Shown here in pieces: positions 24,992 to 61,951 of a DNA stretch of 64,000 nucleotides. This DNA comes from Eledone cirrhosa (Eukaryota), in assembly GCA_964016885.1 (NCBI GenBank), contig OZ024743.1, positions 232,810,001 to 232,874,000 of the forward strand, in the 5' to 3' direction. The translations under genes were made by a program, and so were the position numbers. Position 1 is the first letter of the stretch. Each line of letters begins with the position of its first letter. Below the pieces are notes generated by a model. The model was not told the origin of the DNA and did not search any database. It worked only from the letters and a program-made list of their open reading frames with translations.

Positions 24992-24994
24992 TAC

Positions 24995-33265: not shown

Positions 33266-33333
<68 letters not shown>

Positions 33334-36062: not shown

Positions 36063-36096
<34 letters not shown>

Positions 36097-36097
<1 letters not shown>

Positions 36098-36595
36098 TTA
36101 AAATAACAGATTAAAGTTTAAGCAAAGAATCGCTGCTTTCACCCTTAACGGGATCTTCTGAAACTAACAAAGTCAATCTATAAACGCAGAAGTGGATTTT
36201 CAAAAAAACGTTGTAACCGGGGGAAGACAGGAAGACGATACTTTGGTTCGTGGAAACGTTCCCTGGCAAAGGTAATTGTTTTTCACCGCTCCTATTAATG
36301 ACGTATTATATTCGTTTTTTCCCGTTCTTTGCCAGAGAACGTTTCCACGAACCAAAGTATCGTCTTCCTGTCTTCCTCCGGTTGCAACGTTTTTTTGAAA
36401 ATCCACTTCTGCGTTTACAGATTGACTTTGTTAGTTTCAGAAGATCCCGTTAAGGGTGTAAGCAGCGATTCTTTGCTTAAACTTTAATCTGTTATTTTAA
36501 TAAATATTTGCTCTACGGTTCTTATATATTTGATATATATTTATCCTTATCGAGCCCTCTTTGGATTTTAGTCTTCAAATTTATTATTATTACTA
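36097..36595. mobile_element. Solo palindromic pLTR of Naiad family 1 in (TA)n
   Basis: 36097-36270 is inverted relative to 36273-36595, which matches 57955-58272. Contains two HHRs (36115-36165 minus; 36433-36483 plus). Confidence 0.85.
36115..36165 (-). ncRNA. Hammerhead ribozyme, family 6 (CAGAAGA core)
   Basis: Reverse complement of the motif at 58113-58163. GAAA is intact. Confidence 0.6.
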
Positions 36596-38244: not shown

Positions 38245-38850
38245 GCTCATTGAAAAACACTTCCCATTACAACACCGCTACCACAACATAATTAACAAAA
38301 ATACCATCAAACTCTCTTACAGCACTACACCAAACTTCGCACAAAACATCGTCTCCTCTAACAACAAAAAACTCAACCCCGATGGCAGAAATAACCTAAA
38401 TAGCAGTGGAGAACCGACCAGGAGGTGTAACTGCCCGGATAGATCTATTTGCCCACTCGACAATAGATGCAGAGACCGTAATGTGATCTACCAGTGCAAC
38501 GTGAGGACGGATACCTCCAACAAAGCCTATATAGGACTTATCGCATGTGACTTCAAGACCCGGCTATACCAACATAGACATACCTTCCGAAACCCGGCCC
38601 GGCGTCACGCCACTACACTTTCGGGCCACATATGGGACCTCAAGGACAACAACATGACCTATGATCTCACTTGGAGATTACTGTCCAGAGCCAATTCTTA
38701 CACGGGAGGACGCCGTCCGTGCAATTTATGCTCGTAGGAAACTTTACAAATGCTGTTTTCGACGGACCAACTCCTAAACAAGAAAGATGAACTGGTCACT
38801 GCATGTAAACATAGATTGCGTAGGACTTACCTCGCCCTCAAACCCCATAA
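38245..38850 (+). pseudogene. Naiad linker + GIY-YIG endonuclease fragment
   Basis: KLSYSTTPN, CNCPDRSICPLDNRC, VIYQC..YIG..FKTRLYQH..TTLSGHIWDLK..CNLC. One internal stop. Confidence 0.85.
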
Positions 38851-39972: not shown

Positions 39973-40066
39973 ACCCCTTGAGAAGATCGGCTATTTAAAT
40001 ACCAGGATAAATTTTCATTTAGTCCAGAATTAGCCGTCGAAACGGCTTGAGCTCAGCTGTCGGGGT
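39973..40066 (+). ncRNA. Hammerhead ribozyme, family 3 (U3-A8 variant)
   Basis: ACCCC-TTGAGAA-GATCGGCTA...TAGCCGTC-GAAA-CGGC ttgagctca GCTG-TC-GGGGT. All three stems pair and the cleavage triplet is GUC. Confidence 0.78.
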
Positions 40067-40157
40067 CTTACTGGTTCCTATTACCCACTCTACTACCTCA
40101 AGTATTGAGTACTTTGGTGCGTTATGGTCCACCTGGTTCCTTACCACATTTCCTTCG

Positions 40158-40191
<34 letters not shown>

Positions 40192-40254
40192 CGACTCGTG
40201 TGCTCCTTCTTCACATTTTATTATTATTATTTACTCCCACATGAGATACAGAAA

Positions 40255-41810
40255 ATGCCTACTAAAACAAAAACAGACTCCACTCTCATTAGCACCAATC
40301 AAGAGATACTCCAAGAACTACAAAAAATAAACTCTAATTTGTCAATACTCACCAACAAACTTAATTCTACAAGAGAAGAAACAATCCCCAAATACACATC
40401 CTATGAAATCAACGACAATATCCACAACTTATGTGAAACAATAAAAACACACCTGAATAACAACACAAATCCTATTCAAACGAACGAAAAAACACATGAC
40501 ACTAATACATTTACAACTTACCATTAAAATACAAATTAATACCACAATGGTACACATCTCTTAAAAACAGGAAATTCTCCTTTTGGAAGGTGATACAAAA
40601 CAATAACAAAGTGGAGATCTATGAAAAATGGATTAACCCATCCCCATTAATCATCCCCCGCAAACTACAAATTAAATCCATCCCAAACGAACCAGAGACA
40701 CAAAGACGCCTCAGGGAAAGAATGGCACTTGATAACATAAAAACCGAAATTGAACTCCTTAAATTGAGAGCCCAAGCAAATGAAGATAGGATCAAATCAA
40801 TCGACGATGAGATTAATCAAGCAATTGTCAATAAAACCAAAGACACCACCTGAGAAAATATTTCAACACTTTGGTTAGAGGACTGTATTAAGGAAGAATT
40901 AAAATCCCTTCAACGTTGGGAAATAAACGAAACCTCGTTCTCTAACTATGAAACACTTTTCCAAAAAGAACACACACCCAAGAACCCCTTCATTAAAACC
41001 ATAATAACAAGAAAACCCAATCACCACCCAAACACCACACAACAACCAACAACAACAAAAAACAATACCTCCTCACATACCAAAAAAAGAAGGCATCACC
41101 TCGCCCATATCTCCTACACCCACCACATAGCTACCACACGGATTCCCAAGCAACAAATATAGTAATAGAGAAACATCAGCTACAAGATAGACACTACAAC
41201 TTCTCTCCCACCAGGAGAAACCATAGAATCCCCCACACTTACAACCCCTCTAACATCCCCACACAACAAACCCACAACCATCATTACTTTCAACATAGAA
41301 CCCAAAATACACAACTACCATACATGCCACATAGGGTCTCACAACTACACAGCAACTATAAGGAAACCCTAATCTACCCTCCTCCACTAACCACATCCTA
41401 CTACAACAACACCAGCAGGGGACAATACAACCACACGAGATACCCTAACCACTATAACCACGATAACTACACACCATAGAACAACAACAGCAGGACTCAA
41501 TATAACCACACAAGACAACGCTACTACAACCACCACCAAGTCTACACACCCTAAAACAACAGCAGGCCTCAACACAACCATACAATACAACCCAACTTCA
41601 ACAATCACAACTACACACCCTATAACCACGTCCATCAAATCTACACACCCTACAACAACAACAGCAGAACTCAATACAACCACACGATACAACCTAACTT
41701 CAATAACCACCACAGCTACACACCCACTAACAACAACAGCAGGGGCCAATACAACCATAAGAGACATCCAAAACTCAACAACCACCACAACTTCCGTAGT
41801 CATTTTTTTA
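40255..41810 (+). pseudogene. Neptune 1 ORF1-like region (coiled-coil N-terminus + Asn/Tyr/His-rich repeats)
   Basis: MPTKTK..NQEILQELQKINSNLSILTNKL and IYEKWIN..PRKLQIKSIPNE..KTEIELLKLRA. Homologous to 44440-45597 (minus). Confidence 0.7.
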
Positions 41811-44090
41811 GACACAGCACACAGACACAGGGTAACAAGATAACACAAAACACACAGGAGACACAAAATGTAATAAAAATCGTTAATTTAACCTCTAAAG
41901 AATTAACAACAGACCAAATTAACATACTCTCCAAAGGTCTGAAATTTACATCAACTCCCCAACGACCAAACTACCCGAAATCGAGGAAGATATTGCAGAA
42001 TTCTGTAGAAAACTAAGACTCAGCGACAAATACAATGAGGATGACTCAAAAAATAGCCAGAAATAGAAGCAACTACACCCCACCAAAAAGCAAGAACAAA
42101 TTCCTCGATCAATTCTGCGAACACATTACTAATTACCCATACCACCACCTACACAGACATAATTAAAAACCAAACCTAAGCAAAAAAGAATGGAATTGTC
42201 TCAACAGTCTAAAGAACGACAAAACCCTAACAATCAAAGAGGTGGATAAAGGGAGTGCAATAATCCTTATGGGGACAGATTACTACACGACTCTAGTACT
42301 TTCAACTCTAGAAAACCAAACATATTACGAAAAGGCCCTCACTACACACAACATAAAATAATGAGAAACCTAAAATCCCTAACAACCCTTTACAAAGAAG
42401 GCCTTACCGACAAGGAATACAACTATATCACCAATTTGAAAAGCAGAACAAGCCTCTTCTACGGTATCCCAAAGACACACAGAAGCGAAGTAATAGGCAG
42501 AGCCTGCAAGCAAGCCACAGACATTTACATCAATATCACCCCCCTCCCCGCCTGATGACCTTAAATTAAGACCCATAATAGCAGGAACCACATATGAAAC
42601 CCACCACCTAAGCAACTTCCTAGATATTCTGCTTAAACCTTTCCTAAAACACATAAGAAGCTTCATAAGGGACGACCTTGACATGCTCAGCCACCTCCCA
42701 ATCAACACTTAATAATGAACATACCCTACTAGTAACCTTTGATGTCATCAATTTATATTCCAATATCCCACACAACCTAGGTATAGAGGCAATACAATTC
42801 TGGCTTGAAAATTTCCCTAGTGAACTTCCACAGCATATCCCTAAAGAATTTGTGTTGCAGGGACTCAAATTCATCTTGGAAAACAACTTCTTCGAATTCG
42901 ATGCCAAATACTACAGACAGAAATCTGGGACTGCCATGGGCACGAAAGTAGCCCCCTCATACGCCGCAAGGTTGTAGACAAATACGGTAACCACTTCTAC
43001 CTACACATAGAAAAGAACTGGAAGAGATATCTGGACGACTGCTTCATACTCTGGCATGAAAGTATAGAAAGACTGATTGAGTTTAAAACCCTTCTAAATG
43101 GACTCAACACAAACTTACAGTTTACAATGAATTACAGCCATGAACAACTCCCTTTCCTCGACATCCTTATCAAAAAAACAAACAACAAAATAGAAACAGG
43201 CATATACTACAAATCCAGAGACTCCAAACAATATCTTCCATTCAACTCGTGTCACCCTCGCCATACCAAAATGGCAATTCCTTATAACCTAGCCAGAAGG
43301 ATCTGCACAATAGTTTCAGATAAATACACATGCTACACACGATTAGAAGAATTAAAGAACACACTTATCAGCAGAAACTACCCACCATCCTTAATCAACA
43401 ATGGATTCCAACGTGCCCTAAAACTCAACATCCAGGAACTCAGACACCCCAAACCCAGGAATGATCCACAACAGAAAACTCTACCATACATCTCCACACA
43501 CAACCCTCTCATCAATGAGGCATTCGACATGATCCTCCAGAACATTCCTTTACTAAAGAGAGACACAAGAATGAACAAAATCCTCCAAACACACATCATA
43601 AAGAGCAAAAGACAACCTAAATCCATAAAAAACATCCTCACACAAGCCAAAATCCAACCAACTCTCACAATGAACCCTAAAGTAAAAAAATGCGGAAAGC
43701 CCAACTGTGGCATATGCTTAAATCCAATAGAAGGTTCAACATTCCATTTTAAACAACGACAACATTTCACAGTTAAACACAATTTTAAATGTGCATCTGA
43801 AAACCTAATCTATGTTTTGACCTGCTCAGGTTGTCAAGAGCACTACATAGGATAGACAAAAAACAGCCTCCGACAACGTATGACCGTCCATAGATCACAA
43901 ATCAAAATACAGGAATACAGAAAGATTGCTTTTAGTGAACATATCGCCAATTGTACACCTAACCAACATCCAAACTTTAAAATTTTCCCCATTTACAAAT
44001 TCATAGACAACGCTTCTTTCATCCAATAAGGAAACGTACTTCATTAACAAATTCCAACCTCTACTTAATGGACTAAACTTCGGACTAAAC
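41811..44090 (+). pseudogene. Neptune 1 reverse transcriptase + GIY-YIG endonuclease (multiple stops/frameshifts)
   Basis: IVNLTSKEL..LSKGLKF, FYGIPKTH, LRPIIAG, FDVINLYSNIP, GTAMGTKVAPSYA, KRYLDD, LPFLD, CGKPNCGIC and NLIYVLTCSGC..YIG. Confidence 0.9.
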
Positions 44091-44432
44091 TAAAACTGGA
44101 ACGAACAATGAACCGAAACCAAATCCCTATGTTCTCTAAAGAGTTACCTCCCTGACACCCTACCTAATCCTTTTTCTTATATAAATAAATTACCCCCTCT
44201 CATTTCTCTCTCCTCTACCTGACCACCCTGAATTGCCCTCCTGTATATTAACTCTCTAAAAAGGGAAATCGTTTCAAACCCCAGACTACCATTTGCCTCC
44301 ATCATGGATCAACTAAGCACTCTTGCCATAATAACACACTTTGAACTGCTTATCTTCAAGAACTATGCCTGTAAATAATATTATTTTTTCTTCCTAATAA
44401 TCGTCTTTTTCTCCCTATTTTCATATATATCA

Positions 44433-46560
44433 TAGGTCTAAAAAATGATTTTTCTGGAATGTTTTTTCAATGGTATTATTATATCTAATGGTATTTCCCC
44501 TGTTGTTATGTGGTCTTGTATAGAAGTTTCGGACGTATTGATGTTCGGTTTGTTGATAGTCCGGGTTGTAGATTTTGTTCCTTTGTGTGGGTTGGGATCT
44601 ACGGTTTGGGAACAGGCTCTGTGTGGGCAGGGGTCTACGGTTTTGGAATAGGTTTTGTGTGGGTTGTGATCTGCGGATCGGGTCCTGTCTTGTGTTGGGG
44701 GATCTTCGGTTTTTGTTAGTAGGGTTATAGTTTTGTCTATGGGTTCTGGGATTATCGTTATAGTTTTGCTGGGGGTATGTTGGACGTTTTGTTACTTTTT
44801 TTGTTATTTGTTGTGCATATTTGGTTACTTTTTTTTTATTTGTTGTGCATGTGGTGTGTGAGTTTTAGTTTGTTTTAACTGTATGTTTTTAATTTTTGAA
44901 GTCCATTTCGTAGTTGTTGAACCAGGTGGCATTTTTTCCCCATTGCTGGAGGGATGTTAGTTCTTCATCCTCACAGTTTTCTTTCCAAAGTTTTAAGGTT
45001 TTTTCGTAGAGTAGGCCTTCAGAGTGCTTTGAGATTTCTGTGTCCATCTGATGGTCGAGTGACTTGAATTTTTCTTCGTTGAAGTTAGCTCTTAATCGCA
45101 ACAGTTCTATTTCTATTTTAAATTTTTCCAACGCCATCTTTTCCCTAAGTGTTTGTTGGTTTTCTGATTCATTCGGGATGGGTTTTATTTGGAGTTTTTT
45201 GGGGAGGATGATTGGGGTAGAGTTTAGCCACTTTTCATATATGTCTGCCTTGCCATTATTATTTATGAGATTCCAAAAGGCGAATTTGCGGCTGTGAGCT
45301 TTTGAGTCCATATATTGATTAGGGTGTTTTTCACTGAGTGGACATCTCGTAGATTGGGTTCTAATGGTTGTTCTAGCTTTTGGAGCATTGCTGTTTCAAT
45401 GGTTTCGATTAGTTTAGTTAATGCTGGAGTAACATTCGTCTCTTGGATATTTTCTGTTTCTTCGTGGGGTCCTTTTTTATAGATGTGTATTTGGTCTACT
45501 TTGTTGGTCAAAATTGAGAGTTTAGAGGAAATCTCTTTGAGTTCATTTAAGATGTCCTGGTTCAGTGAGTTGTTGTTTTGTTGAACTTTGGTGGCATTTT
45601 CGGTCTTCGTGTGGTTGGTATGTATTAGAAAGTGAGGCTTTTTTTAACAAAATGAAAAATAACCGAGGTGTCCTACGTATAAAGAAAAAAAGATGAAATC
45701 GAAAATGCAACTGGAGACTTATTTAAAAAAATATATATATCTTTATTTGGTTCCTTTACCGGTTTCGCGAGTTCTTCTGCTTTTCAAAAGTAGAGTTCAG
45801 ATGGAGAGTCTGTGGTTTTTCTCACATCTGGTTGGTCTCTGAATGTTACTTGTTTTATATGGGAAAAGGTGGCTCGAAATGCCAGGTTTTTAGAGAAGTA
45901 ATTTGATTGGTTGGTCAATAATTATAATAAATTTCGCGCCAGTTCGCGTTACAAAGTTCTTCAAACAAGGAGGGGGGGACACAGGTTGTTTTTTCATGTA
46001 TGAGTGTTTGAATTTCTTTTTACTTAAAAAAAAGGGGTGGGGGCTCACGAAGGCTTTTTTTTAATTAACATAATTTGATTGGTTATAAATGAAATTATGG
46101 CTGTCACGTGAACAAGTTTTCATAACATTTTCGCGCCCTTATTTGGAAATCTATTCTGTAGCCTTTTTAGAGAATTTTATGACAAGCAAAAGATAATGGT
46201 CAAGAGAAATGGGATGGGAGAATTATTCTTGTTTAGTGAATATGGTTAGTTCGCTGGGGTGTCAGAATTCAGATTTTCTATTGAAGTAAAGAAAGTAAAG
46301 ATGTGTATGTTTATTTGCATGCTTGGGTGGGTGTGTGTGTGTGTGTGTGTGTGTGTGTATTGAAAGATGATTCTATTAGTAGAAATGGGGGAGGGAGTTG
46401 TGTGTGTATATGTGTGTTATGTGTGTGTGTGTGTGGGAGTATGTTAAGATGAAGAGAATATATATATTTTGTGTGTGTGTATATGTGTGTATATGTGAGT
46501 AGGAAAGTGATTCTATTAGTAGAAATGGGGGAGGGAGTACTGTTTAAACAGGCGGAGCAC
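44433..46560 (-). mobile_element. Neptune-type PLE 2, 5' part (pLTR + ORF1), inverted
   Basis: 45700-46540 is the reverse complement of the 50250-51455 pLTR. ORF pieces 45263-45597 and 44889-45311 are homologous to Neptune 1 ORF1. Confidence 0.8.
45754..45790 (-). ncRNA. Minimal hammerhead-like motif, family 8 (U3-A8)
   Basis: Minus strand reads CTT-TTGAAAA-GCAGAAGAACTCGC-GAAA-CCGG-TA-AAG. Confidence 0.5.
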
Positions 46561-46908
46561 TTAGCTTTGATAAGCACCAAAAAGTGCGAAACAGAGCTCT
46601 GTCAGCTTTACCTCCCCTGTTTGCTGAAAATTAAAGTAAGTGAGACTGTCACTACTCTAAAACAATAGCGTAAGGTTTTCGAAATGCTTTTAATTAACCA
46701 TACAGTGTATTGCAAAATACACTATATATACATTCATATATATATCGCTATTTCAGAGCACCAATTCTAATTTTATATATATATAAACAGCTATTATCAG
46801 CGACCTGATTTTGCGTGTGTGTCATTTTAACGGCTTGACCGCATGCGTTGGGCAGGAAGCGAAATATTTACTTACTGTAGGGCTTGCAACCTTATAGTGT
46901 GGAAATAG

Positions 46909-46989
46909 GCTGTCTGAAGATTCATTTCTTTCCATTGGAAATTCTCTGGATTTCCAATCTTTTGGAATGATGAAACCGTCGGTAACAGC
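46909..46989 (+). ncRNA. Type I hammerhead ribozyme, family 9
   Basis: GCTGT-CTGAAGA-TTCATTTC...GGAATGAT-GAAA-CCGTCGG-TA-ACAGC. Confidence 0.82.
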
Positions 46990-47377
46990 AATAGAACAGG
47001 TGATTATTTAAATCGTTTTTTAATTTATTTAGAGAATTTTTTGATAACCGCTTGCTCCGCTACTTTTTATATTGTTCTGGTATCTCGAATTAGTACCATT
47101 GAACCACAAATATTATAAGCAACTTGCATATTTCTATAAGTACATAGTACCTGTTGAAGTATTCATCCACTTTTATAATTTTTCTCCTTATGTAGAGAAC
47201 AAAACGTTGAATAATGCTGCTAATTTTAGTGACAATATCAACATGTTTATAATAAACAGCTATTATCAGCGATCTGATTTTGCGTGTGTGTCATTTTAAC
47301 GGCTTGACCGCATGCGTTGGGCAGGAAGCGAAATATTTACTTACTGTAGGGCTTGCAACCTTATAGTGTGGAAATAG

Positions 47378-47458
47378 GCTGTCTGAAGATTCATTTCTTT
47401 CCATTGGAAATACTCTGGATTTCCAATCTTTTGGAATGATGAAACCGTCGGTAACAGC
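47378..47458 (+). ncRNA. Type I hammerhead ribozyme, family 9
   Basis: Second copy, 469 bp downstream, with an intact core. Confidence 0.82.
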
Positions 47459-47638
47459 AATAGAACAGGTGATTATTTAAATCGTTTTTTTATTTATTTA
47501 GAGAATTTTTTGATAACCGCTTGCTCCGCTACTTTTTATACTGTTCTGGTATCTCGAATCAGTACCATTGACCCACAAATATTATAAACAACTTGCATAT
47601 TTCTACAAGTACATAGTACCTGTTGAAGTATTCATCCA

Positions 47639-47677
<39 letters not shown>

Positions 47678-47681
<4 letters not shown>

Positions 47682-49991
47682 CCACTTCCTCCTACAGGAC
47701 CCACGACACCCGGTGGCACAAGCCGATTTTGAAAAACCGAAAATAATCAACCTTTCAAATACAAACCTCTCAGCCCAACAAGTAAAAATTCTCTCCAAAG
47801 AACTGAAATTCACACCAACACAATAATACTCTAACGCCAATGAGATAAATAGATAAATGACGATATCTCACACTTCTGTAGAACATTACGTCTCACAGAG
47901 GAATTCTTTGACAAGGAGAATAACGACGAATCAATTGTACGGAATAAAAGCAGCTACAACCCAACAAAAGGTAGAAACAGAGTTCTGGACAAATTTTGTG
48001 ACCACATAGCTACTTTCCCATACCATGAACTACCGCAACCTAAACCCAAACCCAACACGAATCGAAGGGAATGGGAAATTACCCATGAACTAAAAAACAA
48101 TACGGACATTATAATTAAGGAAGCGGACAAGGGAAGTACTGTTGTCATTATGGAGGCTGAAAAATATAAAAATGTTATGTTCTCTCTCTTACAAAATACT
48201 AATTACTATGAAAGAATAAAAAACTACCAGCAATCAAAAACAATGACCAGATTAAACACACGGATTTATCGATACCAGGAAGACCTAACTAAAAAAGAAC
48301 GCGATTATTTAACACATTTTGAATACAAAACTAGCAACCTTTACGGACTTCCGAAGATCCACAAGTGTAAAATAATTAACGATGCCTGTAAACAATCCAC
48401 CCCAGCCCTCGTGAACACACAATACCCCACAGACCTTAAATTAAGACCAATTGTAGCGGGCCCACAATGTGAAACACACAGACTGAGCAACTTTATAGAC
48501 ATACTACTAAAACCAATTCTCAAACACATACCAAGCCTTGTAAGAGACGATCTGGACCTCTTAAACCAGCTCCCCAAACATGTCAACAACAACACTATTA
48601 TTGAGTCTTTCGATGTAGTGAATCTCTACACAACGATCCCACACAAATACGGACTAGAAGCAATAGGATTCTGGCTAGAGAAATATCCCAATGAGATACC
48701 TGGCAGAATAGAAAAAAGCTTCATCACCGAGGGATTAAATTTCATCTTACAGAAAAACTTTTTTTTATTTCGATGGTAGTACTTACAAGCAAATATCGGG
48801 GACTGCGATGGGTACAAAAGCCGCTCCAACTTATGCCAACTTAGTCATGGCATACTTAGAAGTCCAGATATATGAACAGTCCAAATCAAAATACGGATTG
48901 AACTTCCACAAATATTTATCAGAGAATTGGAAACGCTACTTGGATGATTGTCTCATTCTTTGATCCCACACACTCTACCAGCTGAAGGATTTCAAAAACT
49001 TAATAAACGGCATCAATAACCACATCCAATTCACAATGGAATAGAGCCAAGATCAACTACCATTTCTGGACATCTTAATCTTAAAAAAGACACAAATATT
49101 GAAACTGACATACACTACAAACCAACAGATTCCAAACAATACCTGCTATTCACCTCCAGCCATCCAAAGCACACGAAGACGAACATTCCTTTTAACCTAG
49201 CAAGAAGAATTTGCACAATTGTCTCCAATTATGAAACGCGAAATAAAAGACTTCAAGAATTAAAGGAAATTCTACTCGAAAGAGAGTACCCACTATTACT
49301 AATAATTAATGGAATAGAAAGGGCTAAAGCAATTGGCATTGATGAATTACGAAAACAGAAACAAATTCAAGGTACATCCAATATTCTATCATATATCTCA
49401 ACACACAACCCAAGAAATGCGGAAGCTTACAACACTATTCACAAGAACATCCCACTACTAAAACAAAACCCAGGAATGAAAAAATCCCTTGAAACACACA
49501 AAATAATCAAAAGCAAAAGACAACCGAAATCACTGAAAACATTACTCACCAATGCCAAATTACCTACCACAAACCCACAATCAAGTGTCAAAAAATGTGG
49601 TCGCTCTAATTGTGGGACCTGCACTCACCTCATTGAAGGCAACACGTATACATTTAAACCAGGACAAAATGTTACTGTAAAAAATCACTTCACTTGCTCA
49701 TCAAAAAATCTAATTTATGCCATTAAATGTAAAGGATGCAATGACGATTATATAGGACAAACTAAACTCACACTCAGAAACAGAATAACAGTTCATCGCC
49801 AACAATTACGAGATCCAACCACGAAACAGATACCACTAAGCGCACATCTAGACATATGCGCAAGTAATAAGACACCCAAATTCCAAGTCTTCCCATTTTA
49901 CCTTTGCACTAACAATACAACAGAACAAATACGAATAAATAAGGAAAATATGTTTATTCAAATATATAGACCAGCATTAAATATGGTTTAA
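47678..49991 (+). pseudogene. Neptune 2 reverse transcriptase + GIY-YIG endonuclease (disrupted)
   Basis: IINLSN..LSKELKFTPT, KEADKG, LYGLPKIHK, LRPIVAG, FDVVNLYTTIP, KRYLDD, CGRSNCGTC and NLIYAIKCKGC..YIGQT. Confidence 0.9.
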
Positions 49992-50741
49992 TATACATTA
50001 TGTCAACACCATAACATGCTACCCATCCAAACAGACACATAAACACGCACATAACACCTGCTACTTTAGAAAATAAAAAGCCGAACTAAATAAACCTTAA
50101 CATACGTTTGCGCTGACAATACAACAGAACAAAAACGAATAAGTAAGGAAAATATGTTCATTCAAATATATTCCTACTAAAGGAATCATTTTCCTACACA
50201 CACACACAAACACACACACACACACACACACAATATGTATATATATTCTCTTCATCTTAACATGCTAACCATGCTCCCACACACATAACACCCATACACA
50301 CACACACAACACCCTCCCTCATTTCTACTAATAGAATCACTTTCCTACACATATATATACATACACACACACACAAAATATATATATTCTCTCCATCTTA
50401 ACATACTCCCACACACACACACACACACACACAAGCACACAAATAAACATACACATCTTTACTTTCTTTACTTCAATAGAAAATCTGAATTCTGACACCC
50501 CAGCGAACTAACCATATTCACTGAACAAGAACAATTCTCCCATCCCATTTCTCTTGACCATTATCTTTTGCTTGTCATAAAATTCTCTAAAAAAGCTACA
50601 CAATAGATTTCCAAATAAGGTCGCGAAAATTTAATGATAACTTGTTCACGTGACAGCCATAATTTCATTTATAACCAATCATATTACGATTATTTAAAAA
50701 AAAAGCTTTCGTGAGCCCCTTTTTTAAGTAAAAAAAAATTC

Positions 50742-50830
<89 letters not shown>

Positions 50831-51361
50831 GCACACAAATAAACATACACATCTTTACTTTCTTTACTTCAATAGAAAATCTGAATTCTGACACCCCAGC
50901 GAACTAACCATATTCACTGAACAAGAACAATTCTGCCATCCCATTTCTCTTGACCATTATCTTTTGCTTGTCATAAACTTCTCTAAAAAGGCTACAGAAT
51001 AGATTTCCAAATAATGGCGCGAAAATGTTATGAAAACTTGTTCACGTGACAGCCATAATTTCATTTATAACCAATCAAATTATGTTAATTAAAAAAAAGC
51101 CTTCGTGAGCACCCCCTTTTTTTCAAGTAAAAAGAAATTCAAACACTCATATATGAAAAAACAACCTGTGTCCCCCCCCCCCTTGTTTGAAGAACTTTGT
51201 AACGCGAACTGGAGCGAAATTTATTATAATTATTGACCAACCAATCAAATTACTTCTCTAAAAACCTGGCATTTCGAGCCACTTTTTTCCATATAAAACA
51301 AGTAACATTCAAAGACCAACCAGATGTAAAGAAAAACCACAGACCCGCCATCTCAACTCTA

Positions 51362-51394
51362 CTTTTGAAAAGCAGAACTGCGAAACCGGTAAAG
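51362..51394 (+). ncRNA. Minimal hammerhead-like motif, family 8 (U3-A8)
   Basis: CTT-TTGAAAA-GCAGAACTGC-GAAA-CCGG-TA-AAG, with a palindromic stem III. Confidence 0.55.
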
Positions 51395-51470
51395 GAACCA
51401 AATAAATATTTATATTTTTTTAAATAAGACTCCAGTTACATTTTCGATTTCATCTATTTCACTCTCTCTC

Positions 51471-51564
<94 letters not shown>

Positions 51565-52195
51565 GAGAGAGTGAGAGAATGGAGAGACAAATACCATCCT
51601 TTCTGTCTAGGGTGCAATTGAAATCTAACTACTGTTTAACTGATTATTTCAAACACAAACAAACAAGGAGTCAGCACAAATAACCAATCTAATTTACATC
51701 ACCGTGCATTCGTTAGTAACCTGATTAAATAATCAATTATTCATTTTATGTACAATACCATACATACTAGATAATTTGACATTTTTGAAAGAGTTATACA
51801 AGCAGTTGTTTAATTTGCATAAGTAGAATTTAATAGTTTACAGTTATTTATATCAAAAACGTGCCTTGACTTAGCTGGAAAATTTAGTTTCATTTGCATA
51901 ACAGTGCACGAATTTTCGAGTAGAAATGAAACTAACCAGGTCAATGCCAATGTTTATTTACTCGCAGAGAAATATAACATATAGTTTTACATGGGTTAAC
52001 GTTTCGAGTCTGCTTTATAATTTTTAAATTGTAAGTATGTCACCTTAAAAAATATAGTCTATTATCCAATGCACCAAACTACAATTTCCATGGGTAGTGA
52101 CGAATGAGGAAAATAGATGCTACAATTCGTTCATTTCACACATCCGTATATGCGTTTTCCAGTGTGAATCTTCGTACGAATGTATATAAAAATAC

Positions 52196-52249
<54 letters not shown>

Positions 52250-52264
52250 TAACAGATTAAAGTA

Positions 52265-52315
52265 AGTTTAAGCAAAGAATCGCTGCTTTCACCCTTAACG
52301 GGATCTTCTGAAACT
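52265..52315 (-). ncRNA. Hammerhead ribozyme, family 6
   Basis: Reverse complement of 58113-58163. Confidence 0.6.
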
Positions 52316-53515
52316 AACAAAGTCAATCTGTAAACGCAGAACTGGATATTTCAAAAAACGTTGCAACCGGAGGAAGACAGGAAGACGATACTTTGGTTCG
52401 TGGAAACGTTCGCTGGCAAAGAACGGGAAAAAACGAATAATACGTCATTAATAGGAGCGGTGAAAAACAATTTCGCGCAAAGACAGAACCACGTTTATGG
52501 TATAAAGAGGTCGTAGACTAATGTTCACTTAGGTGGTGCATAGAGACGTTCTCTGGCAATGAACGAAAAAACGAAGATAATAAGTCATATGTGGATCGTG
52601 GAGAACAATAGGACGCAAAGACAAAACCACGTAAATGGTATAGCAGAAGTCGTAGACTAAAATTCTAACTAGGAGACCAAATGAATCTCCGCTACAGAGT
52701 TAAGAACAAAGTAAATAAATGCAATACAGAAGTAATAGAAATAAATAAATACATACACGCAAACAGATACGTACATACACAAGCATACGCAAAACCTTAC
52801 CATAGGTATACAAAACCACGCATATATAAATATGTGTGTGTGTGTATGCTTGTGTACAAATAAATAAATAATTATATAAACGTATATAAGTAAATAAATA
52901 CGTATATAACAAGCGCACACACATACCTACAAATAAATACACGAATGTTCGGAGACGTAAGTCAACTAAAACAAGAAGTACACATATACACATATACACA
53001 CACCCACCATACGTACGAACCTGCATACTCACGCAGACGCAAAACTCCCGTATACACATAGCCGAACCCTAAATACCAGAATATGTAAAAATGATACGCC
53101 ATAACAGTCAAATATACGTACGAGAAGGTATACATACCTTCACAAAACATACGGGTAATATATACTTACCAATGCAAATAAGTAAAGGAATAAACAAAAC
53201 ATATACTTAGCTCCCACATCAAGACGTAAAATATCCACGTATAGATCGTGCTATCCGTTAGGGTATAACGTGGGGCTGTAATACAGGAAAGTTTTGTGCA
53301 ATTTATGTTTACAAGCCGAAATTGCCTCAGATTTTTTGTTTAAGATGTGGTCTGTGGCGTAGAGTATTTCCAGGGCCTCAGTGGCGCAGAGGTCACATGG
53401 TCTTTTATTTCCGTTATACGATCTAGCCCTAGCTAGGATCTCCCAGTGTAACTTATATTTGGGTGTGGTTGTCTTTTAGACTCCAGATATAAGCTGAAAG
53501 TGACGTCATATTCCT

Positions 53516-54541
53516 TCATGGAGGGTAACGAAAAGAATGGGTATGCATGTAAAGACGCTGCTTGAAACTATTGGCGGTTAACCCTATGTAGGCCCTACGG
53601 GACGTGGGTGTTACAATCTTACATTTGGAGACAATGTTACTAGAGAGGCATTTCCCGGATAGGGGGCAATCAGCCCGATTCCTACAATTACAGTTAGTAC
53701 TAACTACAGGGTTGCACGTGTTCCTACGGCTAAGTAGTTTAGCTAAATTTGAAGCTGTGATGTTATGTGCAAGGTTAGGAGTCGTAGAGTAAGAAATGTT
53801 AATAGTATTTCTATTACAAATTTTACTATATTTATGTGTAGGGGGAAAATGCTTCGTAATAAGGGAAAGAAAGAACTTAGCTAATGGTGTGGCCACCTCC
53901 ATATTATATGGTGGGTTAAACCAACAAATGCGACGGGATCTATTTCTTCTAGGTCTATTTTCGTACTCTGTATATGCTACCTTATCGACAAATCCACTTC
54001 GAGCAAGAGCTTCATTGTAATAAGTGGAATGGTCGTTGAAAATGCGCTCGTTGGTGGAAAGACGGGAAAGCCTCAACGAAACGTTTTTTACCAGGTTCTT
54101 GGTTATGCTGGCAGGATGGTTGGAATGCTTACTTATGTAATTAAACGTATCATTCGGCTTTCTATACGGGAAATACAACCCATTCAATAAATTGAGGGTA
54201 ACGTCGAGGTAATTAACGACCGAGAGATTGGCCTCAACCTGTATAGAGAGGTTGAAGCCTTTAAAGAAGGCTGTGAGTTCTTTTCTGAACCTGTCGCAAG
54301 CACGAGGTCCGCACTTAGTCATGGTCAAAAGACCATCGTCACGGTACAAACCACCGCACGCGTTGTGGAATTCGTCCTTGATAGAGAAAAGAAGGAAAAG
54401 GCCAATAAGATCAGTAACCCGCGCAGAGTCACTGGCGCCCATATTCACGTCGAATTGGGTACTATTGGATTTTTTAATCCAAATAGAGTCGTCGAAATTA
54501 ATCACCGACTTTTGGGCATTAAGGATGACATCAACTTCGAA
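53516..54541 (-). pseudogene. Inverted truncated copy of the Naiad 1 RT-EN ORF
   Basis: ORF 53516..54598, from FEVDVILN onward, is near-identical to 55887-56912 (GLYRDDGL). Confidence 0.88.
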
Positions 54542-55046
54542 AGTGCTATTGTTCTCCACGCTCCACATATGACTTATTATCTTCGTTTTTTCGTTCATTG
54601 CCAGAGAACGTCTCTATGCACCACCTAAGTGAACATTAGTCTACGACCTCTTTTATACCATAAACGTGGTTCTGTCTTTACGCCTAATTGTTTTTCACCG
54701 CTCCTATTAATGACGTATTATTCGTTTTTTCCCGTTCTTTGCCAGCGAACGTTTCCACGAACCAAAGTATCGTCTTCCTGTCTTCCTCCGGTTGCAACGT
54801 TTTTTGAAATATCCAGTTCGGCGTTTACAGATTGACTTTGTTAGTTTCAGAAGATCCCGTTAAGGGTGCAAGCAGCGATTCTTTGCTTAAACTTTAATCT
54901 GTTATTTTAATAAATATTTGCTCTACAGTTCTTATATATTTGATATATATTTTCCTTATCGAGCCCTCTATGGATTTTAGTCTTCAATTTTATTATTATT
55001 ACTATTTGGCTCCTTCGGTTGAGCACTCTACTGACTTATATTCATC

Positions 55047-56912
55047 ATGCAGAAACAACATCTGAATATTTCTACGAAGAACATACCCGTACCAAGCAGG
55101 AAAACATACCTAAAACTCCTTATACGGAAAACAGACGCGTTTATTAAAAGGTTGCGTTGGCGTGCCTTTTATTTCGATAATCCGCGAAAAGCAGACAACA
55201 AACAGGATAAATTTGGATTTAAAACCTATAATAACCCTCCGTGGAACCCAGCATTGCTACCCTTCGAAAATGATGTCTTGGAAGTCATTCGGAGTATCGA
55301 ATTTCGGAATAGGAGCAATTCCTTCCAGCAAGACCTGAAGAATAGAATTCGTTCTATTAAGGGTTCTAACGCCGTGCACGTCCATTCCGACAAAACTGGC
55401 AACCTATATCAAGTGGAGCGCAGTACTTACCATCAACTACTACATAATGCTGTAACTAAGGATTACCGTAAAACTAATCGGTGTGTCATCAATGAAATCA
55501 ACGATGCTGGGTTTAAAATCACATCTGATCTCAACATCCTGGACCGGACCGAACCTCTGGATCCTATCTCTCCCCACTTTACTCTGAAGGATCACAAATC
55601 CAATTTTCCGAACAACCCCTCTATTCGGTTTATTAACCCTACGAAGTCCGATTTAGGTAGACTTAGTAAAACGATTCTTGACAGAATTATACCTGAAATT
55701 AGAAGTTTGGCCCCTCTCGCACTGTGGAACAATTCCTTCGCGGTGATTGATTGGTTCAACGGCATATGTAACAAGGAACATTGCCGTTTTATCCAATTCG
55801 ACATCAACAATTACTACTCCTCCATCACTTTACCACTTCTCCTTAGAGCTATCAATTTCGCTAAAGCACTCAAAGTGGTTAAGAATTTCGAAGTTGATGT
55901 CATCCTTAATGCCCGAAAGTCGGTGATTAATTTCGACGACTCTATTTGGATTAAAAAATCCAATAGTACCCCATTCGACGTGAGTATGGGCGCCAGTGAC
56001 TCTGCGGAGGTTACTGATCTTATTGGCCTTTTCCTTCTTTTCTCTATCAAGGACGAATTCCAGAACGCGTGCGGTGGTTTGCACCGTGACGATGGTCTTT
56101 TGACCATGACTAAGTGCGGACCTCGTGCTTGCGACAGGTTCAGAAAAGAACTCACAGCCTTCTTTAAAGGCTTCAACCTCTCTATACAGGTTGAGGCCAA
56201 TCTCTCGGTCGTTAATTACCTCGACGTTACCCTCAATTTATTGAATGGGTTGTATTACCCGTATAGAAAGCCGAATGATACGTTTAATTACATAAGTAAG
56301 CATTCCAATCATCCTGCCAGCATAACCAAGTACCTGGTAAAAAACGTTTCGTTGAGGCTTTCCCGTCTTTCCACCAACGAGCGCATTTTCAACGACCATT
56401 CCACTTATTACAATGAAGCTCTTGCTCGAAGTGGATTTGTCGATAAGGTAGCATATACAGAGTACGAAAATAGACCTAGAAGAAATAGATCCCGTCGCAT
56501 TTGTTGGTTTAACCCACCATATAATATGGAGGTGGCCACACCATTAGCTAAGTTCTTTCTTTCCCTTATTACGAAGCATTTTCCCCCTACACATAAATAT
56601 AGTAAAATTTGTAATAGAAATACTATTAACATTTCTTACTCTACGACTCCTAACCTTGCACATAACATCACAGCTTCAAATTTAGCTAAACTACTTAGCC
56701 GTAGGAACACGTGCAACCCTGTAGTTAGTACTAACTGTAATTGTAGGAATCGGGCTGATTGCCCCCTATCCGGGAAATGCCTCTCTAGTAACATTGTCTC
56801 CAAATGTAAGATTGTAACACCCACGTCCCGTAGGGCCTACATAGGGTTAACCGCCAATAGTTTCAAGCAGCGTCTTTACATGCATACCCATTCTTTTCGT
56901 TACCCTCCATGA
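55047..56912 (+). CDS. Naiad-type PLE polyprotein: reverse transcriptase + CNC..CPL..C linker + GIY-YIG N-terminus (EN C-terminus continues past a stop/frameshift to ~57150)
   Basis: 621 aa with STKNIPVPS..KRLRWRAFYF, SDKTGNLY, TLKDHK, RFINPTKS, QFDINNYYSSI, FDVSMGA.D.AEV, HRDDGL, NYLDVTL, SNHP and WFNPPY. Confidence 0.88.
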   Translation: MQKQHLNISTKNIPVPSRKTYLKLLIRKTDAFIKRLRWRAFYFDNPRKADNKQDKFGFKTYNNPPWNPALLPFENDVLEVIRSIEFRNRSNSFQQDLKNRIRSIKGSNAVHVHSDKTGNLYQVERSTYHQLLHNAVTKDYRKTNRCVINEINDAGFKITSDLNILDRTEPLDPISPHFTLKDHKSNFPNNPSIRFINPTKSDLGRLSKTILDRIIPEIRSLAPLALWNNSFAVIDWFNGICNKEHCRFIQFDINNYYSSITLPLLLRAINFAKALKVVKNFEVDVILNARKSVINFDDSIWIKKSNSTPFDVSMGASDSAEVTDLIGLFLLFSIKDEFQNACGGLHRDDGLLTMTKCGPRACDRFRKELTAFFKGFNLSIQVEANLSVVNYLDVTLNLLNGLYYPYRKPNDTFNYISKHSNHPASITKYLVKNVSLRLSRLSTNERIFNDHSTYYNEALARSGFVDKVAYTEYENRPRRNRSRRICWFNPPYNMEVATPLAKFFLSLITKHFPPTHKYSKICNRNTINISYSTTPNLAHNITASNLAKLLSRRNTCNPVVSTNCNCRNRADCPLSGKCLSSNIVSKCKIVTPTSRRAYIGLTANSFKQRLYMHTHSFRYPP

Positions 56913-58112
56913 AGGAATATGACGTCACTTTCAGCTTATATCTGGAGTCCAAAAGACAACCACACCCAAATATAAGTTACACTTGGAGATCCTAGCTAGG
57001 GCTAGATCGTATAACGGAAATAAAAGACCATGTGACCTCTGCGCCGCTGAGGCCCTGGAAATACTCTACGCCACAGACCACATCTTAAACAAAAAACTGA
57101 GGCAATTTCGGCTTGTAAACATAAATTGCACAAAACTTTCCTGTATTACAGCCCCATGTTATACCCTAACGGATAGCACGATCTATACGTGGATATTTTA
57201 CGTCTTGATGTGGGAGCTAAGTATATGTTTTGTTTATTCCTTTACTTATTTGCATTGGTAAGTATATATTACCCGTATGTTTTGTGAAGGTATGTATACC
57301 TTCTCGTACGTATATTTGACTGTTATGGCGTATCATTTTTACATATTCTGGTATTTAGGGTTCGGCTATGTGTATACGGGAGTTTTGCGTCTGCGTGAGT
57401 ATGCAGGTTCGTACGTATGGTGGGTGGGTGTATATGTGTATATGTGTACTTCTTGTTTTAGTTGACTTACGTCTCCGAACATTCACGTGTTTATTTGTAG
57501 GTATGTGTGTGCGCTTGTTATATACGTATTTATTTACTTATATACGTTTATATAATTATTTATTTATTTGTACACAAGCATACACACACACACATATTTA
57601 TATGTGCGTGGTTTTGTATACCTATGGTAAGGTTTTGCGTATGCTTGTGTATGTACGTATCTGTTTGCATGTATGTATTTATTTATTTCTATTACTTCTG
57701 TATTGCATTTATTTACTTTGTTCTTAACTCTGTAGCGGAGATTCATTTGGTCTCCTAGTTAGAATTTTAGTCTAGGACTTCTGCTATACCATTTACGTGG
57801 TTTTGTCTTTGCGTCCTATTGTTCTCCACGCTCCACATATGACTTATTATCTTCGTTTTTTCGTTCATTGCCAGAGAACGTCTCTATGCACCACCTAAGT
57901 GAACATTAGTCTACGACCTCTTTTATACCATAAACGTGGTTCTGTCTTTGCGCGTAATTGTTTTTCACCGCTCCTATTAATGACGTATTATTCGTTTTTT
58001 CCCGTTCTTTGCCAGCGAACGTTTCCACGAACCAAAGTATCGTCTTCCTGTCTTCCTCCGATTGCAACGTTTTTTGAAATATCCAGTTCTGCGTTTACAG
58101 ATTGACTTTGTT

Positions 58113-58163
58113 AGTTTCAGAAGATCCCGTTAAGGGTGAAAGCAGCGATTCTTTGCTTAAACT
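58113..58163 (+). ncRNA. Hammerhead ribozyme, family 6 (CAGAAGA core; copy at 54843-54893 has GCAA)
   Basis: AGTTT-CAGAAGA-TCCCGTTAAGGGT-GAAA-GCAGCGATTCTTTGC-TT-AAACT. Confidence 0.62.
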
Positions 58164-58269
58164 TTAATCTGTTATTTTAATAAATATTTGCTCTACGGTT
58201 CTTATATATTTGATATATATTTTCCTTATCGAGCCCTCTTTGGATCTTAGTCTTCAATTTTATTATTAT

Positions 58270-58327
<58 letters not shown>

Positions 58328-58759
58328 TGAAAGGATAACAAGGACGATTGGTTACTCCTTCATTACATTTATTGGTATGTGACGCGCGTTTCGCCACTGA
58401 TCAGCTCAAGGTTTGATCTGTATCGATCTTACCCGACTCTATAATCGGCAGCTCGACGGACCCTTTAAAATGCTAGTAGAAAAATGAATACATGGTATAT
58501 GATAAAGTCAGAAGTTCACATATTGGTCAATATGAATTGTTTTGATTGGTGGACTAGATCAAAACAATTCATATTGACCTACATATGAACTTCTGACTTT
58601 ATCATATACCTTGTATTCATTTTCTACTAGCATTTTAAAGATGGAGCGGTATTTATGACCTATGGGAAAGTGTCTATCTAAGAGGGCTAAAAATTGTTTG
58701 CCTACATTGGTTTTAACGTTGAGTGAGAAGGGAGGAGAGAAGCGTAACAATAGACAAAC

Positions 58760-59718
58760 TATCTGGTTTTCTCCTCCTTTCTCACTCAACGTTAAAACTA
58801 ATGTAGGCAAAAGATTTCCAGCCCTCTTAGATAGACACTTTCCCATAGGTCATAAATACCGCTCCATCTTTAACAAAGTAAAACTAGAATACTCCTGCGC
58901 TAATAACATGAAGGCCCACATCACCAGCAGCCCTAGGAGCAACATCCCACCAGGGTGCGCTTCCCGTAAGCCCGAATCTTTTCCCCTTCAACACCAATGC
59001 AACACACCCGCTGTAATTTATGAAGCTGTGGTCACTTCCAACCGACCAAACCAACCACAGGAGGTCAAATCCTATGTGGGCATGGCGGAGGGTCGATTTC
59101 AGGAACGTTTCCTGAACCACCAGTCGACTTTTACGTACCGGGACAGACGTTCATCCACGAAACTCGCCAGCCACGTATGGTTCTTCATGGATTCAAGTAT
59201 AGACTACTCCATTCAATGGAAAGCCATCACTAAGTCCAAGCCATACTCAAGGGGAAATCCGTCGTGTCGACTATGTATTGATGAACGAATAAATATCCTA
59301 AAGAGATTATGCAATAGTGATTGCCTAAACACGAGGAATGAATTCTTTACACGTTGTCCACACGTCTCGAAACACCTCTTGCATAACTACAAAACTCCGG
59401 ATTGAATTATTACAACAACATCATAATTTTCTTATCAACTAAAAACTGTTTGGACTTTCGCACTTATCTCCCTTACACCTCTCCTCTCCTACGCATTTTA
59501 GTATTGCCTGTGTGAAGTGACCGATTTCTGCGCATGCTCGTTCGTACGGTTGTCCTTCCTGTTCCGTATAACCATGTCCATTACGAGCTGAAAATCCGCT
59601 AAGGTGAAACAATTGTCCTCGGTATGGTGAACTAACTGTTGTGAAACCACTTCTACCTAACTCGTCCCATGGACTGAGTGCTCTACCACTACGGATATTA
59701 CCTTCCAGTGTTCTACCA

Positions 59719-59720
<2 letters not shown>
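58760..59720 (+). mobile_element. Naiad-type PLE family 4, 5'-truncated (GIY-YIG to 59405 + pLTR with HHR at 59584-59621)
   Basis: [57 protein letters not shown]. Confidence 0.85.
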
Positions 59721-59779
<59 letters not shown>

Positions 59780-60380
59780 GAGAGAGTGAGAGAATGGGGA
59801 GACAAATACCATCCTTTCTGTCTAGGGTGCAATTGAAATCTAACTACTGTTTAACTGTTTATTTCAAACACAAACAAGGAGTCAGCACAAATAACCAATC
59901 TAATTTACATCACCGTGCATTCGTTAGTAACGTGATTAATTAATCAATTATTCATTTTATGCACAATACCATACATACTGGATAAACTGACATTTTTGAA
60001 AGAGTTATACAAGCAGTTGTTTAATTTGCATAAGTAGAATTTAATAGTTTACAGTTATTTATATCAAACACGTGCCATGACTTAGCTGAAAAATCTAGTC
60101 TCTTTTGCATAACAGTGCACGAATTTTCGAGTAGAAATGAAACTAACGAGGTCAATCCAAATGTTTCTTTACTCGCAGAGAAATATAACAAATAGTTTTA
60201 CATGGGTTAACGTTTCGAGTCTGCTTTATAATTTTTAAAATGTAAGTATTCTATTATTCAATGCACCAAACTTTTTCCAAGGGTAGTGACTAATGAGCAA
60301 AATAGATACTACAATTCGTTCATTTCACACATCCGTATATCGGTTTTCCAGTGTGAATCTTCGTACGAATGTATATAAAA

Positions 60381-60440
<60 letters not shown>

Positions 60441-60867
60441 AAAGGAAAACAAGGACGATTGGTTACTCCTTCATTACATTTATTGGTAGGTGACGCGCGT
60501 TTCGCCACTGATCAGCACAAGGTTTGATATGTATCGATCTTACCCGACTCTATAATCGGCAGCTCGACGGACCCTTTAAAATGCTAGTAGAAAAATGAAT
60601 ACATGGTATATGATAAATTCAGAAGTTCATATGTTGGCCAATATGAATTGTTTTGATTGGTGGAATAGATCAAAACAATTCATATTGACCAACATATGAA
60701 CTTCTGACATTATCATATACCTTGTATTCATTTTCTACTAGCATTTTAAAGATGGAGCGGTATTTATGACCTATGGGAAAGTGTCTATCTAAGAGGGCTA
60801 GAAATTGTTTGCCTACATTGGTTTTAACGTTGAGTGAGAAGGGAGGAGAGAAGCGTAACAATAGACA

Positions 60868-61860
60868 AACTATCTGGTTCTCTGCTCCCTTCTCACTCAA
60901 CGTTAAAACCAATGTAGGCAAAAGATTTCCAGCCCTCTAAGATAGACACTTTCCCATAGGTCATAAATACCGCTCCATCTTTAACCGACACAAAGTAAAA
61001 CTAGAATACTCCTGCGCTAATAACATGAAGGCCCACATCACCAGCAGCCCTAGGAGCAACATCCCACCAGAGTGCGCTTCCCGTAAGCCCGAAGCTTTTT
61101 CCCTTCAACACCAATGCAACACACCCGCTGTAATTTATGAAGCTGTGGTCACTTCCAACCGACCAAACCAACCACAGGAGGTCAAATCCTATGTGGGCAT
61201 GGCGGAGGGCCGATTTAAGGAACGTTTCCTGAACCATCAGTCGACCTTTAGGCACCCGGACAGACGTTCATCCGCGAAACTCGCGAGCCACGTATGGTCT
61301 CTCAAGGACTCAAGTATAGACTACTCCATTCAATGGAAAGCCATCACTAAGTCCAAGCCATACACAAGGGGAAATCCGTCGTGTGGACTTGTATTGGCGA
61401 ACGAATAAATATTCTAAAGAGATTATGCAATAGTGATTGCCTAAACATGAGAGGTGAATTTTTCACACGTTGTCCACACGTCTCGAAACACCTATTGAAT
61501 AACTTGAAACACCTATTGCATAACTACACGTCTCCGGATTGAATGAATTATTGTAACAACATCAATATTTTTTCTTATCAACTAAAAACATTTCTGACTT
61601 TCGCAGTTATATCCCTTACACCTCTCCCACGCATTTTAGTATTGCCTATGTGAAGTGACGGGTTTCTGCGCATGCGCGTTCGTACAGTTGTCCTTTCTGT
61701 TCCGTATAACCATGCCCATTACGAGCTGAGGACCCGCTAAGGTGAAACAATTGTTCTCGGTATGGTGAACTAATTGTTGGGTAACCACTTCTACCTAACT
61801 CGTCCCATAGACTGAGTGCTCTACCACTTCGGATATTACCTTCCAGTGTTCTACCACTAT
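60868..61860 (+). mobile_element. Duplicate Naiad family 4 fragment
   Basis: ORF 61025..61408 is a paralogue of 58908-59280. Confidence 0.85.
61722..61759 (+). ncRNA. Minimal hammerhead ribozyme, family 11
   Basis: CGAG-CTGAGGA-CCCGCTAAGGT-GAAA-CAATTG-TT-CTCG, with a palindromic stem III. Confidence 0.7.
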
Positions 61861-61882
61861 ATAAATATATATATATTAATAA

Positions 61883-61951
<69 letters not shown>

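Follow-up and report, generated by a model that had tools for sequence, protein, structure and literature searches.

The 64,000-nucleotide (nt) window analyzed here (Eledone cirrhosa, assembly GCA_964016885.1, contig OZ024743.1, positions 232,810,001 to 232,874,000 of the forward strand) carries a 6-kb Penelope-like element (PLE) at 52244-58272, flanked on both sides by alternating (TA)n. Judged from its motifs, this element is a copy of a new Hydra-clade PLE family. Our results suggest that it probably inserted into a pre-existing TA tract after the surrounding DNA had been duplicated, with both cut ends of the target priming reverse transcription at two fixed template positions, T1 and T2. 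The preference of the clade for TA is already known. What is new is a paralogous empty site, genome-wide counts of TA flanks, the rejection of a tail added at random sites, and the pairing of T1 with T2.

Filled and empty copies of one site

Self-alignment of the window reveals a duplicated unit of ~2.08 kb plus tracts, arranged along the forward strand as (TA)43, X, (TA)22, the 6-kb element, (TA)27, Y, (TA)27, X', (TA)27, Y' and a TA-rich tract (Table 1). TA tracts occupy all three unit boundaries, the last of them at 61859-61948. The left flanks X and X' differ by 28 substitutions over 610 aligned bases (Kimura two-parameter distance, K2P, 4.7%), and the right flanks Y (58326-59720) and Y' by 71 over 1388 (K2P 5.3%). 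Divergence along Y/Y' is uneven, with 22 differences in the first 800 columns and a roughly threefold higher divergence in the last 600 (59100-59720 versus 61250-61858), where conversion by another copy of PLE family W possibly contributed. X and Y are separated by a tract, the element and a second tract, whereas X' and Y' are separated by (TA)27 alone. A first-pass annotation of the window had described a ~2.1-kb duplicated unit whose second copy, X'-(TA)n-Y', is empty, and alignment of X/Y with X'/Y' shows this arrangement.

Genome-wide, the 396 bases at the 3' end of X have matches at X and X' alone (two candidates, two matches, in a 3.0-Gb genome). Contigs from two runs of one sample contain the letter variants of both copies, so assembly error does not explain the differences between X and X'; the assembly may itself derive from that sample, and none of its contigs crosses a junction. 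Two restriction site-associated DNA (RAD) runs from other individuals placed 2 and 1 partial reads on X, too few to inform. The reading of the units as a tandem rather than as alleles rests on structure, not on reads, namely on unit ends that fall exactly in TA tracts and on a gap-free window. We consider it very unlikely that the assembler set filled and empty alleles of one locus side by side: both variants do occur in one sample, at depths that leave the matter unsettled (the depth control, 4800-5900, was a high-copy repeat), but the unit spans 2 kb only, its ends and the gap-free window speak for a true duplication, and 4.7% in low-copy DNA seems to us high for alleles.

Divergence also bears on the order of events. 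The two arms of the element are 1.05% apart, versus the 4.7% of X/X' and 5.3% of Y/Y'; they have 13 private variants in common and ~10 changes per arm in 1665 bases, which amounts to ~0.6% per arm versus 1.4-2.6% per copy for the duplication. Since the arms are less diverged than the duplicate units, the insertion likely followed the duplication, a dating that assumes that the arms were not homogenized. The converse order, in which a filled unit was duplicated and its second copy then lost the element by recombination between its TA tracts, strikes us as extremely improbable. Direct TA tracts flank the element and further tracts bound the duplication, so such an exchange is plausible in itself, but the distances of the arms from one another (1.05%) and of this copy from its family majority (1.65%) lie below the 2.8-5.3% of the duplicate units, and homogenization of the arms would be required.

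Y cannot be taken as neutral DNA, since pieces of two other PLEs make it up. The fixed, tail-less end of family Z accounts for its first 235 bases; the genome holds 3356 first-look candidates for this family, and 16 of 27 paralogues of this end carry a tract at the same place; the remainder includes a fragment of family W. The empty tract thus directly abuts the fixed end of a TA-flanked PLE family and, though older than the insertion, may owe its form to a previous PLE insertion. The site alone therefore cannot show that TA tracts are independent of PLEs, and the target question was put to genome-wide tests. That is to say, the earlier claim that the microsatellite existed first stands in that the tract pre-dates this insertion, and was overstated in resting on a single site beside a Z end.

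TA tracts as the probable insertion target

Genome-wide tests used a 1.4-Mb library of loci. An end was scored as TA-flanked when at least 10 nt of alternating TA, interruptions allowed, abutted the fixed end, and the background was taken from positions in 60 evenly spaced 10-kb regions. Copies of the window element's family have two fixed ends, T1 at position 3185 and T2 at position 3270 of a 3270-nt repeating unit, 85 nt apart. TA tracts adjoin 120 of 134 fixed ends (T1, 52 of 60; T2, 68 of 74), versus 6.2% of random positions, and the ends of a short interspersed nuclear element-like repeat reach 2 of 30 and 3 of 30. Internal junctions after T2 read TATTTGG without TA in all 33 cases, and a TA tail is therefore not encoded by the element. 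In two family copies the end lies at a (TAT)n tract, and <10 nt of TA adjoins 14 of the 134 fixed ends, which argues that the flanks follow the target.

A tail added at random TA sites would leave the flanks contiguous and tract-free in paralogues. In simulation, 124 of 300 tract-free TA sites had a two-sided paralogue in the library. Among 77 real insertions, a tract-free empty paralogue was found once, versus ~32 expected (P = 8e-17), and among the 28 two-armed insertions it was never found (P = 3e-7). Large deletions at real junctions would cut the power of this test, less so for two-armed insertions. The set of 77 drops blocks of <100 nt or <85% identity and flanks of <80 nt; the empty-site count excludes matches to the insertion itself or to the family's own ends (L085, L066), as well as two repeats joined by chance (L084). 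Several one-sided paralogues that at first resembled tract-free empty sites were rejected, as their flanks proved to be tail-less ends of other PLE families (L056 inspected, the rest by eye), and counting was for that reason restricted to two-sided matches. No true empty site emerged when two-sided matches were sought for 41 insertions of family V, 30 of W and 17 of Z.

Taken together, the 120 of 134 ends, the 33 TA-free junctions and the single tract-free paralogue support the tract as target over a tail added at random sites, in keeping with the annotation's proposal of an integration target rather than a tail added by the element. The data thus bound the tail model, in that TA is neither encoded nor added at random sites, and they leave room for lengthening of the tract.

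Several observations, besides the Z end beside the empty tract, weigh against this reading. Candidates ran to hundreds or thousands, of which the loci represent the 30-40 with the best scores. A true two-sided empty site that contains a tract turned up just once, and one insertion (L092) has a tract-free paralogue with ~52 bases replaced. Of the random set, 5.2% consists of perfect (TA)5+ tracts, and in this genome 59% of TATA sites run into tracts, so that a short TA preference explains part or much of the bias. Flanking tracts are also longer than a plain cut predicts: their summed length has a median of 101 versus 65 nt (P = 0.02), both sides reach at least 10 nt in 25 of 28 insertions versus 60% expected (P = 7e-4), and the filled site in the window totals 96 nt, as against 54 nt for its empty counterpart. 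Longer tracts could result from staggered cutting, from a bias toward tracts that are already long, from slippage after insertion or from addition by the reverse transcriptase (RT), and some duplication or lengthening may accompany insertion. Tracts are found at 90 of 99 fixed ends versus 16 of 55 truncated ends, an asymmetry that is also expected from a tail.

The lengths and the asymmetry would likewise follow if the element cut TA sites of any length, short or long, and its RT, a relative of telomerase, then slipped on the few U/A template bases at the start site, adding TA units that lengthen or seed the favored tracts. L092, with ~7 extra TA bases relative to a 99% identical tract-free neighbor sequence, is in line with such extension. 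We nonetheless find this doubtful: addition is not obligatory, given the 14 ends with <10 nt, tract-free empty paralogues are nearly absent, the other sources of lengthening named above could act on flanks as well, and the neighbor of L092 may itself be a truncated PLE arm. The boldest form, in which RT slippage adds TA units as well and these Hydra-clade families build the very TA tracts (5% of the genome) that they target, is to our minds just as doubtful. Insertion into an existing tract remains our preferred reading.

A target-site duplication would be hidden within TA tracts. At one locus (L086, G000:C2:131513647-131523646), the 33 bases past the left tract are the reverse complement of those past the right tract, reflecting either insertion mid-way in a small palindrome or an inverted target duplication.

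T1 ends are nearly always paired with T2 ends

Inspection of insertions with two fixed ends reveals that 27 of 28 combine T1 with T2. Insertions with a single fixed end divide into 24 T2 and 19 T1, such that independent choice predicts about half of the pairs to be mixed (P = 8e-8). The 28 comprise 10 from loci retrieved with a query ending at T2, 2 in the window and 16 from loci found by the start of the open reading frame (ORF) or at random; all 16 of the latter, which were not chosen by their ends, are mixed. Arm lengths differ at every two-armed locus, and the insertions are therefore separate events. Pairing extends to other families: mixed ends occur in 8 of 8 family W insertions with both ends fixed (all but one from T2-query loci), in 8 of 9 for family Z, and in 17 of 23 for family V, where nearly all were found incidentally and the others were 2 same and 4 clipped.

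The two arms appear to derive from one source. Among 13 overlaps examined, long ones have 13, 10, 9, 6 and 4 private variants common to both arms, which points to one source copy; five shorter overlaps have none. The long arm carries T2 in 20 cases and T1 in 6. At L096 and L107 each arm includes sequence that the other lacks, an observation against simple fold-back. In short V copies, both arms stop near the same template position with differing junction letters, as expected if both were copied to one RNA end. Both ends show a TA-like overlap of 3-5 nt, with TAT in the template just beyond T2 and AATAT at T1. The literature searched contained no empty-site test in microsatellites and no twin priming for PLEs; Arkhipova 2006 and Evgen'ev and Arkhipova 2005 fell outside the search and may state the pairing.

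The one-tail pattern could instead originate at the DNA level, through single priming followed by cDNA fold-back or template switching, with the endonuclease cutting the element's own AT-rich T1 (AATAAATAT) to yield the second end. The parts of PMC8557442 covered suggest endonuclease-mediated resolution as the origin of the tail, and self-priming on an antisense template has been modeled for inversions of the Adineta vaga Penelope (PMC3846280, in the parts covered). Private variants common to the arms and near-palindromic junctions in short V copies are compatible with this origin. Against it speak the non-nested arms of L096 and L107, the unrelated 5' ends of the two arms in the window element's family, and in vitro work on a single PLE, in which reverse transcription starts at either boundary of the tail (PMC11167929, passages covered). 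We regard a DNA-level origin as possible but rather unlikely.

Proposed mechanism

We favor a model in which both ends of a cut TA tract prime on one template. The C-terminal GIY-YIG domain would nick both strands within alternating TA, and each 3' end would pair by a few bases with the template, either beyond T2 or at T1. Two cDNAs from one source would stop at variable points and would then be joined head to head. Where one arm is lost, the truncated end would be joined by repair, often with loss of the tract on that side. The 2-kb duplication itself may have arisen via unequal exchange between the bounding TA tracts. We infer all of the enzymatic steps.

Whether the reaction is obligatorily paired, such that a dimer cuts both TA strands and its two RT subunits start at T1 and T2 of one template, is a question on which we see the chances as evenly balanced. 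If true, it would account for three features together: an inverted arm, a tail restricted to one of the two ends, and TA flanking each side. A point against the favored model as a whole is that the two strands showed no difference in start site in the passages of PMC11167929 covered.

Element anatomy and coding capacity

The element consists of an inverted arm, a 5' pseudo-long terminal repeat (pseudo-LTR), an ORF, a long 3' untranslated region (UTR) and a 3' pseudo-LTR. It thereby displays the general hallmarks of PLEs, namely pseudo-LTRs, an inverted truncated 5' arm and a tail at one end. In the window copy, a stop at 56910-56912 interrupts the ORF, and a frameshift lies further downstream. 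This stop is present in both arms, and the enzyme for the window copy was therefore likely supplied in trans. A selenoprotein reading of the in-frame TGA at 56910 was rejected, as the codon is private (1 of 33 copies), occupies the place of an Arg and lies ahead of the frameshift. An uninterrupted 709-codon frame is found in 4 of 33 long copies. These copies diverge 0.5-1.7% from the family majority, indicative of a young family, and the family is large, with 2165 first-look candidates for the ORF start.

The ORF begins MQKQHLNISTKNIP and is a single frame of RT followed by a C-terminal GIY-YIG domain; the YIG motif and the catalytic R, E and N lie after the RT thumb, and there is no N-terminal endonuclease. 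The RWK-type motif reads RLRWRAF (K to R), DKT rather than DKA occupies residues 115-117 (SDKTGN), and the CxCX5C linker reads CNCRNRADC. CDLC..E and N..CKH stand beside the catalytic E and N, and no CxxC lies within the GIY-YIG core, so no CCHH is present (read by eye). The protein is 43% identical to protein P0005 over 625 columns (E = 8e-170, pairwise), which in turn shows ~15 differences from the printed first 400 residues of Hydra-2_Amil (~96% identical, by eye). A Pfam scan of 14 proteins matched no family on the main ORF, and the endonuclease call rests on motifs and alignment.

In the sections of PMC8557442 covered, the Hydra clade is characterized by a C-terminal GIY-YIG, RWK, DKT, a CxCX5C linker, CxxC and CxH near the conserved E and N, no CCHH and (TA)n insertion, and Naiad by an N-terminal endonuclease, DKA, CCHH and no canonical hammerhead; the supplement table lists a (TA)n preference for all Hydra families but one, an octopus family included. 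The first-pass annotation had named the element Naiad. Its C-terminal endonuclease, DKT and missing CCHH rule out that membership, and its motifs are instead those of the Hydra clade.

The hammerhead-like motif pairs three stems as in the Hydra table layout. Its core, located at 58118-58125 in the window, is CAGAAGA, not CTGAnGA, in 120 of 132 matches among those listed. An Rfam scan gave no match on the motif and returned only sub-threshold miRNA-type matches to repeats and hairpins, and the minimum-energy fold differs from a hammerhead (z 0.52). Fixation of this core in a young, recently mobile family would suggest either that it is a tolerated variant or that cleavage is dispensable. Several arms (L086, L100, L007, L083, L089) begin or end at unit positions 3138-3144, the base of hammerhead-like stem III, a possible RT stop site.

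Table 1. Features of the duplicated unit, the 6-kb element and a short related copy, in window positions.
Feature	Position	Strand	Basis or remark
Short two-armed copy of the window element's family, TA tracts on both sides	36094..36593	.	T1 arm inverted, T2 arm direct
(TA)43 tract, left boundary of the duplicated unit	51474..51559	.	sequence, self-alignment
X, left flank	51560..52195	.	3' 396 bases unique to X and X'
Left TA tract of the filled site	52200..52243	.	sequence, self-alignment
Inverted 5'-truncated arm, reverse complement of 55886-58180	52244..54542	-	1.05% apart; ends at T1, without the 85-nt tail
5' pseudo-LTR, 460 nt	54543..55002	+	2.0% from 3' copy; TATTTGG joins to ORF side, no TA tract
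Hydra-clade ORF (predicted), end approximate	55047..57176	+	RWR, DKT, RDDG RT core, CxCX5C linker, C-terminal GIY-YIG-type endonuclease
3' pseudo-LTR, ending at T2 (58272)	57813..58272	+	alignment
Hammerhead-like motif, three-stem Hydra layout	58113..58163	+	core CAGAAGA
85-nt tail between T1 (58187) and T2 (58272)	58188..58272	+	end mapping
Right TA tract of the filled site, one G interruption	58273..58327	.	sequence
Y part 1, tail-less fixed end of high-copy PLE-type family Z, usually TA-flanked	58326..58560	-	
Y part 2, 3' fragment of Hydra-like family W	58740..59720	+	fold-backs at 58463-58873
(TA)27 tract between the two units	59721..59774	.	sequence, self-alignment
X', second copy of X	59775..60384	.	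alignment
(TA)27, empty site	60385..60438	.	sequence, alignment
Y', second copy of Y	60437..61858	.	alignment

Other features of the window

Further PLEs are distributed across the window. A Hydra-like family V element at 37252-40158 is TA-flanked on both sides, its left end being inverted and lacking a tail and its right end bearing a tail of 77 nt; genome-wide, this family has many two-armed derivatives of 190-200 nt, whose junctions fall at almost one template position and vary in their letters. Another Hydra-like family at 11734-15422 has direct and inverted arms, is TA-bounded, and has ends ~119 nt apart. PLEs at 40189-44430, 45687-51459 and 7592-8396 carry DKG, a CX2-5CxxC linker and a C-terminal Pfam GIY-YIG match, and are Neptune-like by motifs. 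No N-terminal-endonuclease element was found among the window ORFs examined. Nearly every other PLE in the window had been described as (TA)n-bounded; by eye and uncounted, most pieces have a tract at one or both ends.

A small tandem duplication of 396 nt (46778-47173 and 47248-47642, 97.7% identical) ends at a TA tract. Nested inverted repeats at 1705-4442, 97-99% identical, surround microsatellites and possibly represent a fold-back element. Several partial copies of long interspersed nuclear element (LINE) fragments with matches to endonuclease, RT and zf-RVT occupy 24190-33340, and the high-copy repeat at 4800-5900 reaches depths in the thousands in three runs and has no match in the 1.4-Mb library.

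Comparison with known systems

In the twin priming that generates 5' inversions of LINE-1, cDNA synthesis is primed by both target ends on a single template, and joining of the products yields an inversion. The parts are non-overlapping there and the second site is variable, whereas here both arms share the pseudo-LTR and the start sites are fixed. For the Adineta vaga Penelope, target duplications of 8-10 bp are readable (PMC3846280, in the parts covered).

The family shares its motif set and (TA)n insertion with the Hydra clade (Craig et al. 2021, PMC8557442; e.g. Hydra-1_Obim and Hydra-2_Amil) as described in the sections covered. Its 3270-nt unit differs from the generally <3 kb of the clade, an excess for which the long 3' UTR accounts, and its CAGAAGA core differs from the CTGAnGA there; the 85-nt tail likewise exceeds the 30-40 nt given in the source parts covered for PLE tails in general. 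Naiad offers a likeness in its partial tandem with an inverted 5' arm, a tail at one end and a (TA)n preference in many families (PMC8557442, sections covered). The annotation's suggestion of PLE lineages targeted to TA microsatellites is supported here for the window element's family, and such lineages had already been published there for Hydra and many Naiad families. The same sections describe PLEs as biased toward insertion at TA and as often tailed at a single end; the empty site and the pairing of ends are absent from those sections and the supplement parts covered. The questions they name as open are the origin of tandem and inverted structures, the tail and the microsatellite bias, and T1 + T2 pairing bears on them.

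The closest biochemical comparison is purified Poseidon PAc (Anolis), a predicted dimer that cuts and extends both strands (PMC11167929, passages covered); among the papers found, no other PLE is active in vitro. Its in vitro behavior fits the model of a two-strand cut and two starts proposed here, since two RT start sites bound its tail and cleavage is AT-rich. In contrast to the family described here, it belongs to another clade, prefers ATT and primes without homology to the cut DNA, versus the TA-like overlap of 3-5 nt. The passages covered do not report that a single insertion combines the two start sites. Near-strict T1 + T2 pairing in four families of one genome predicts that two-ended products in vitro would use one start site each.

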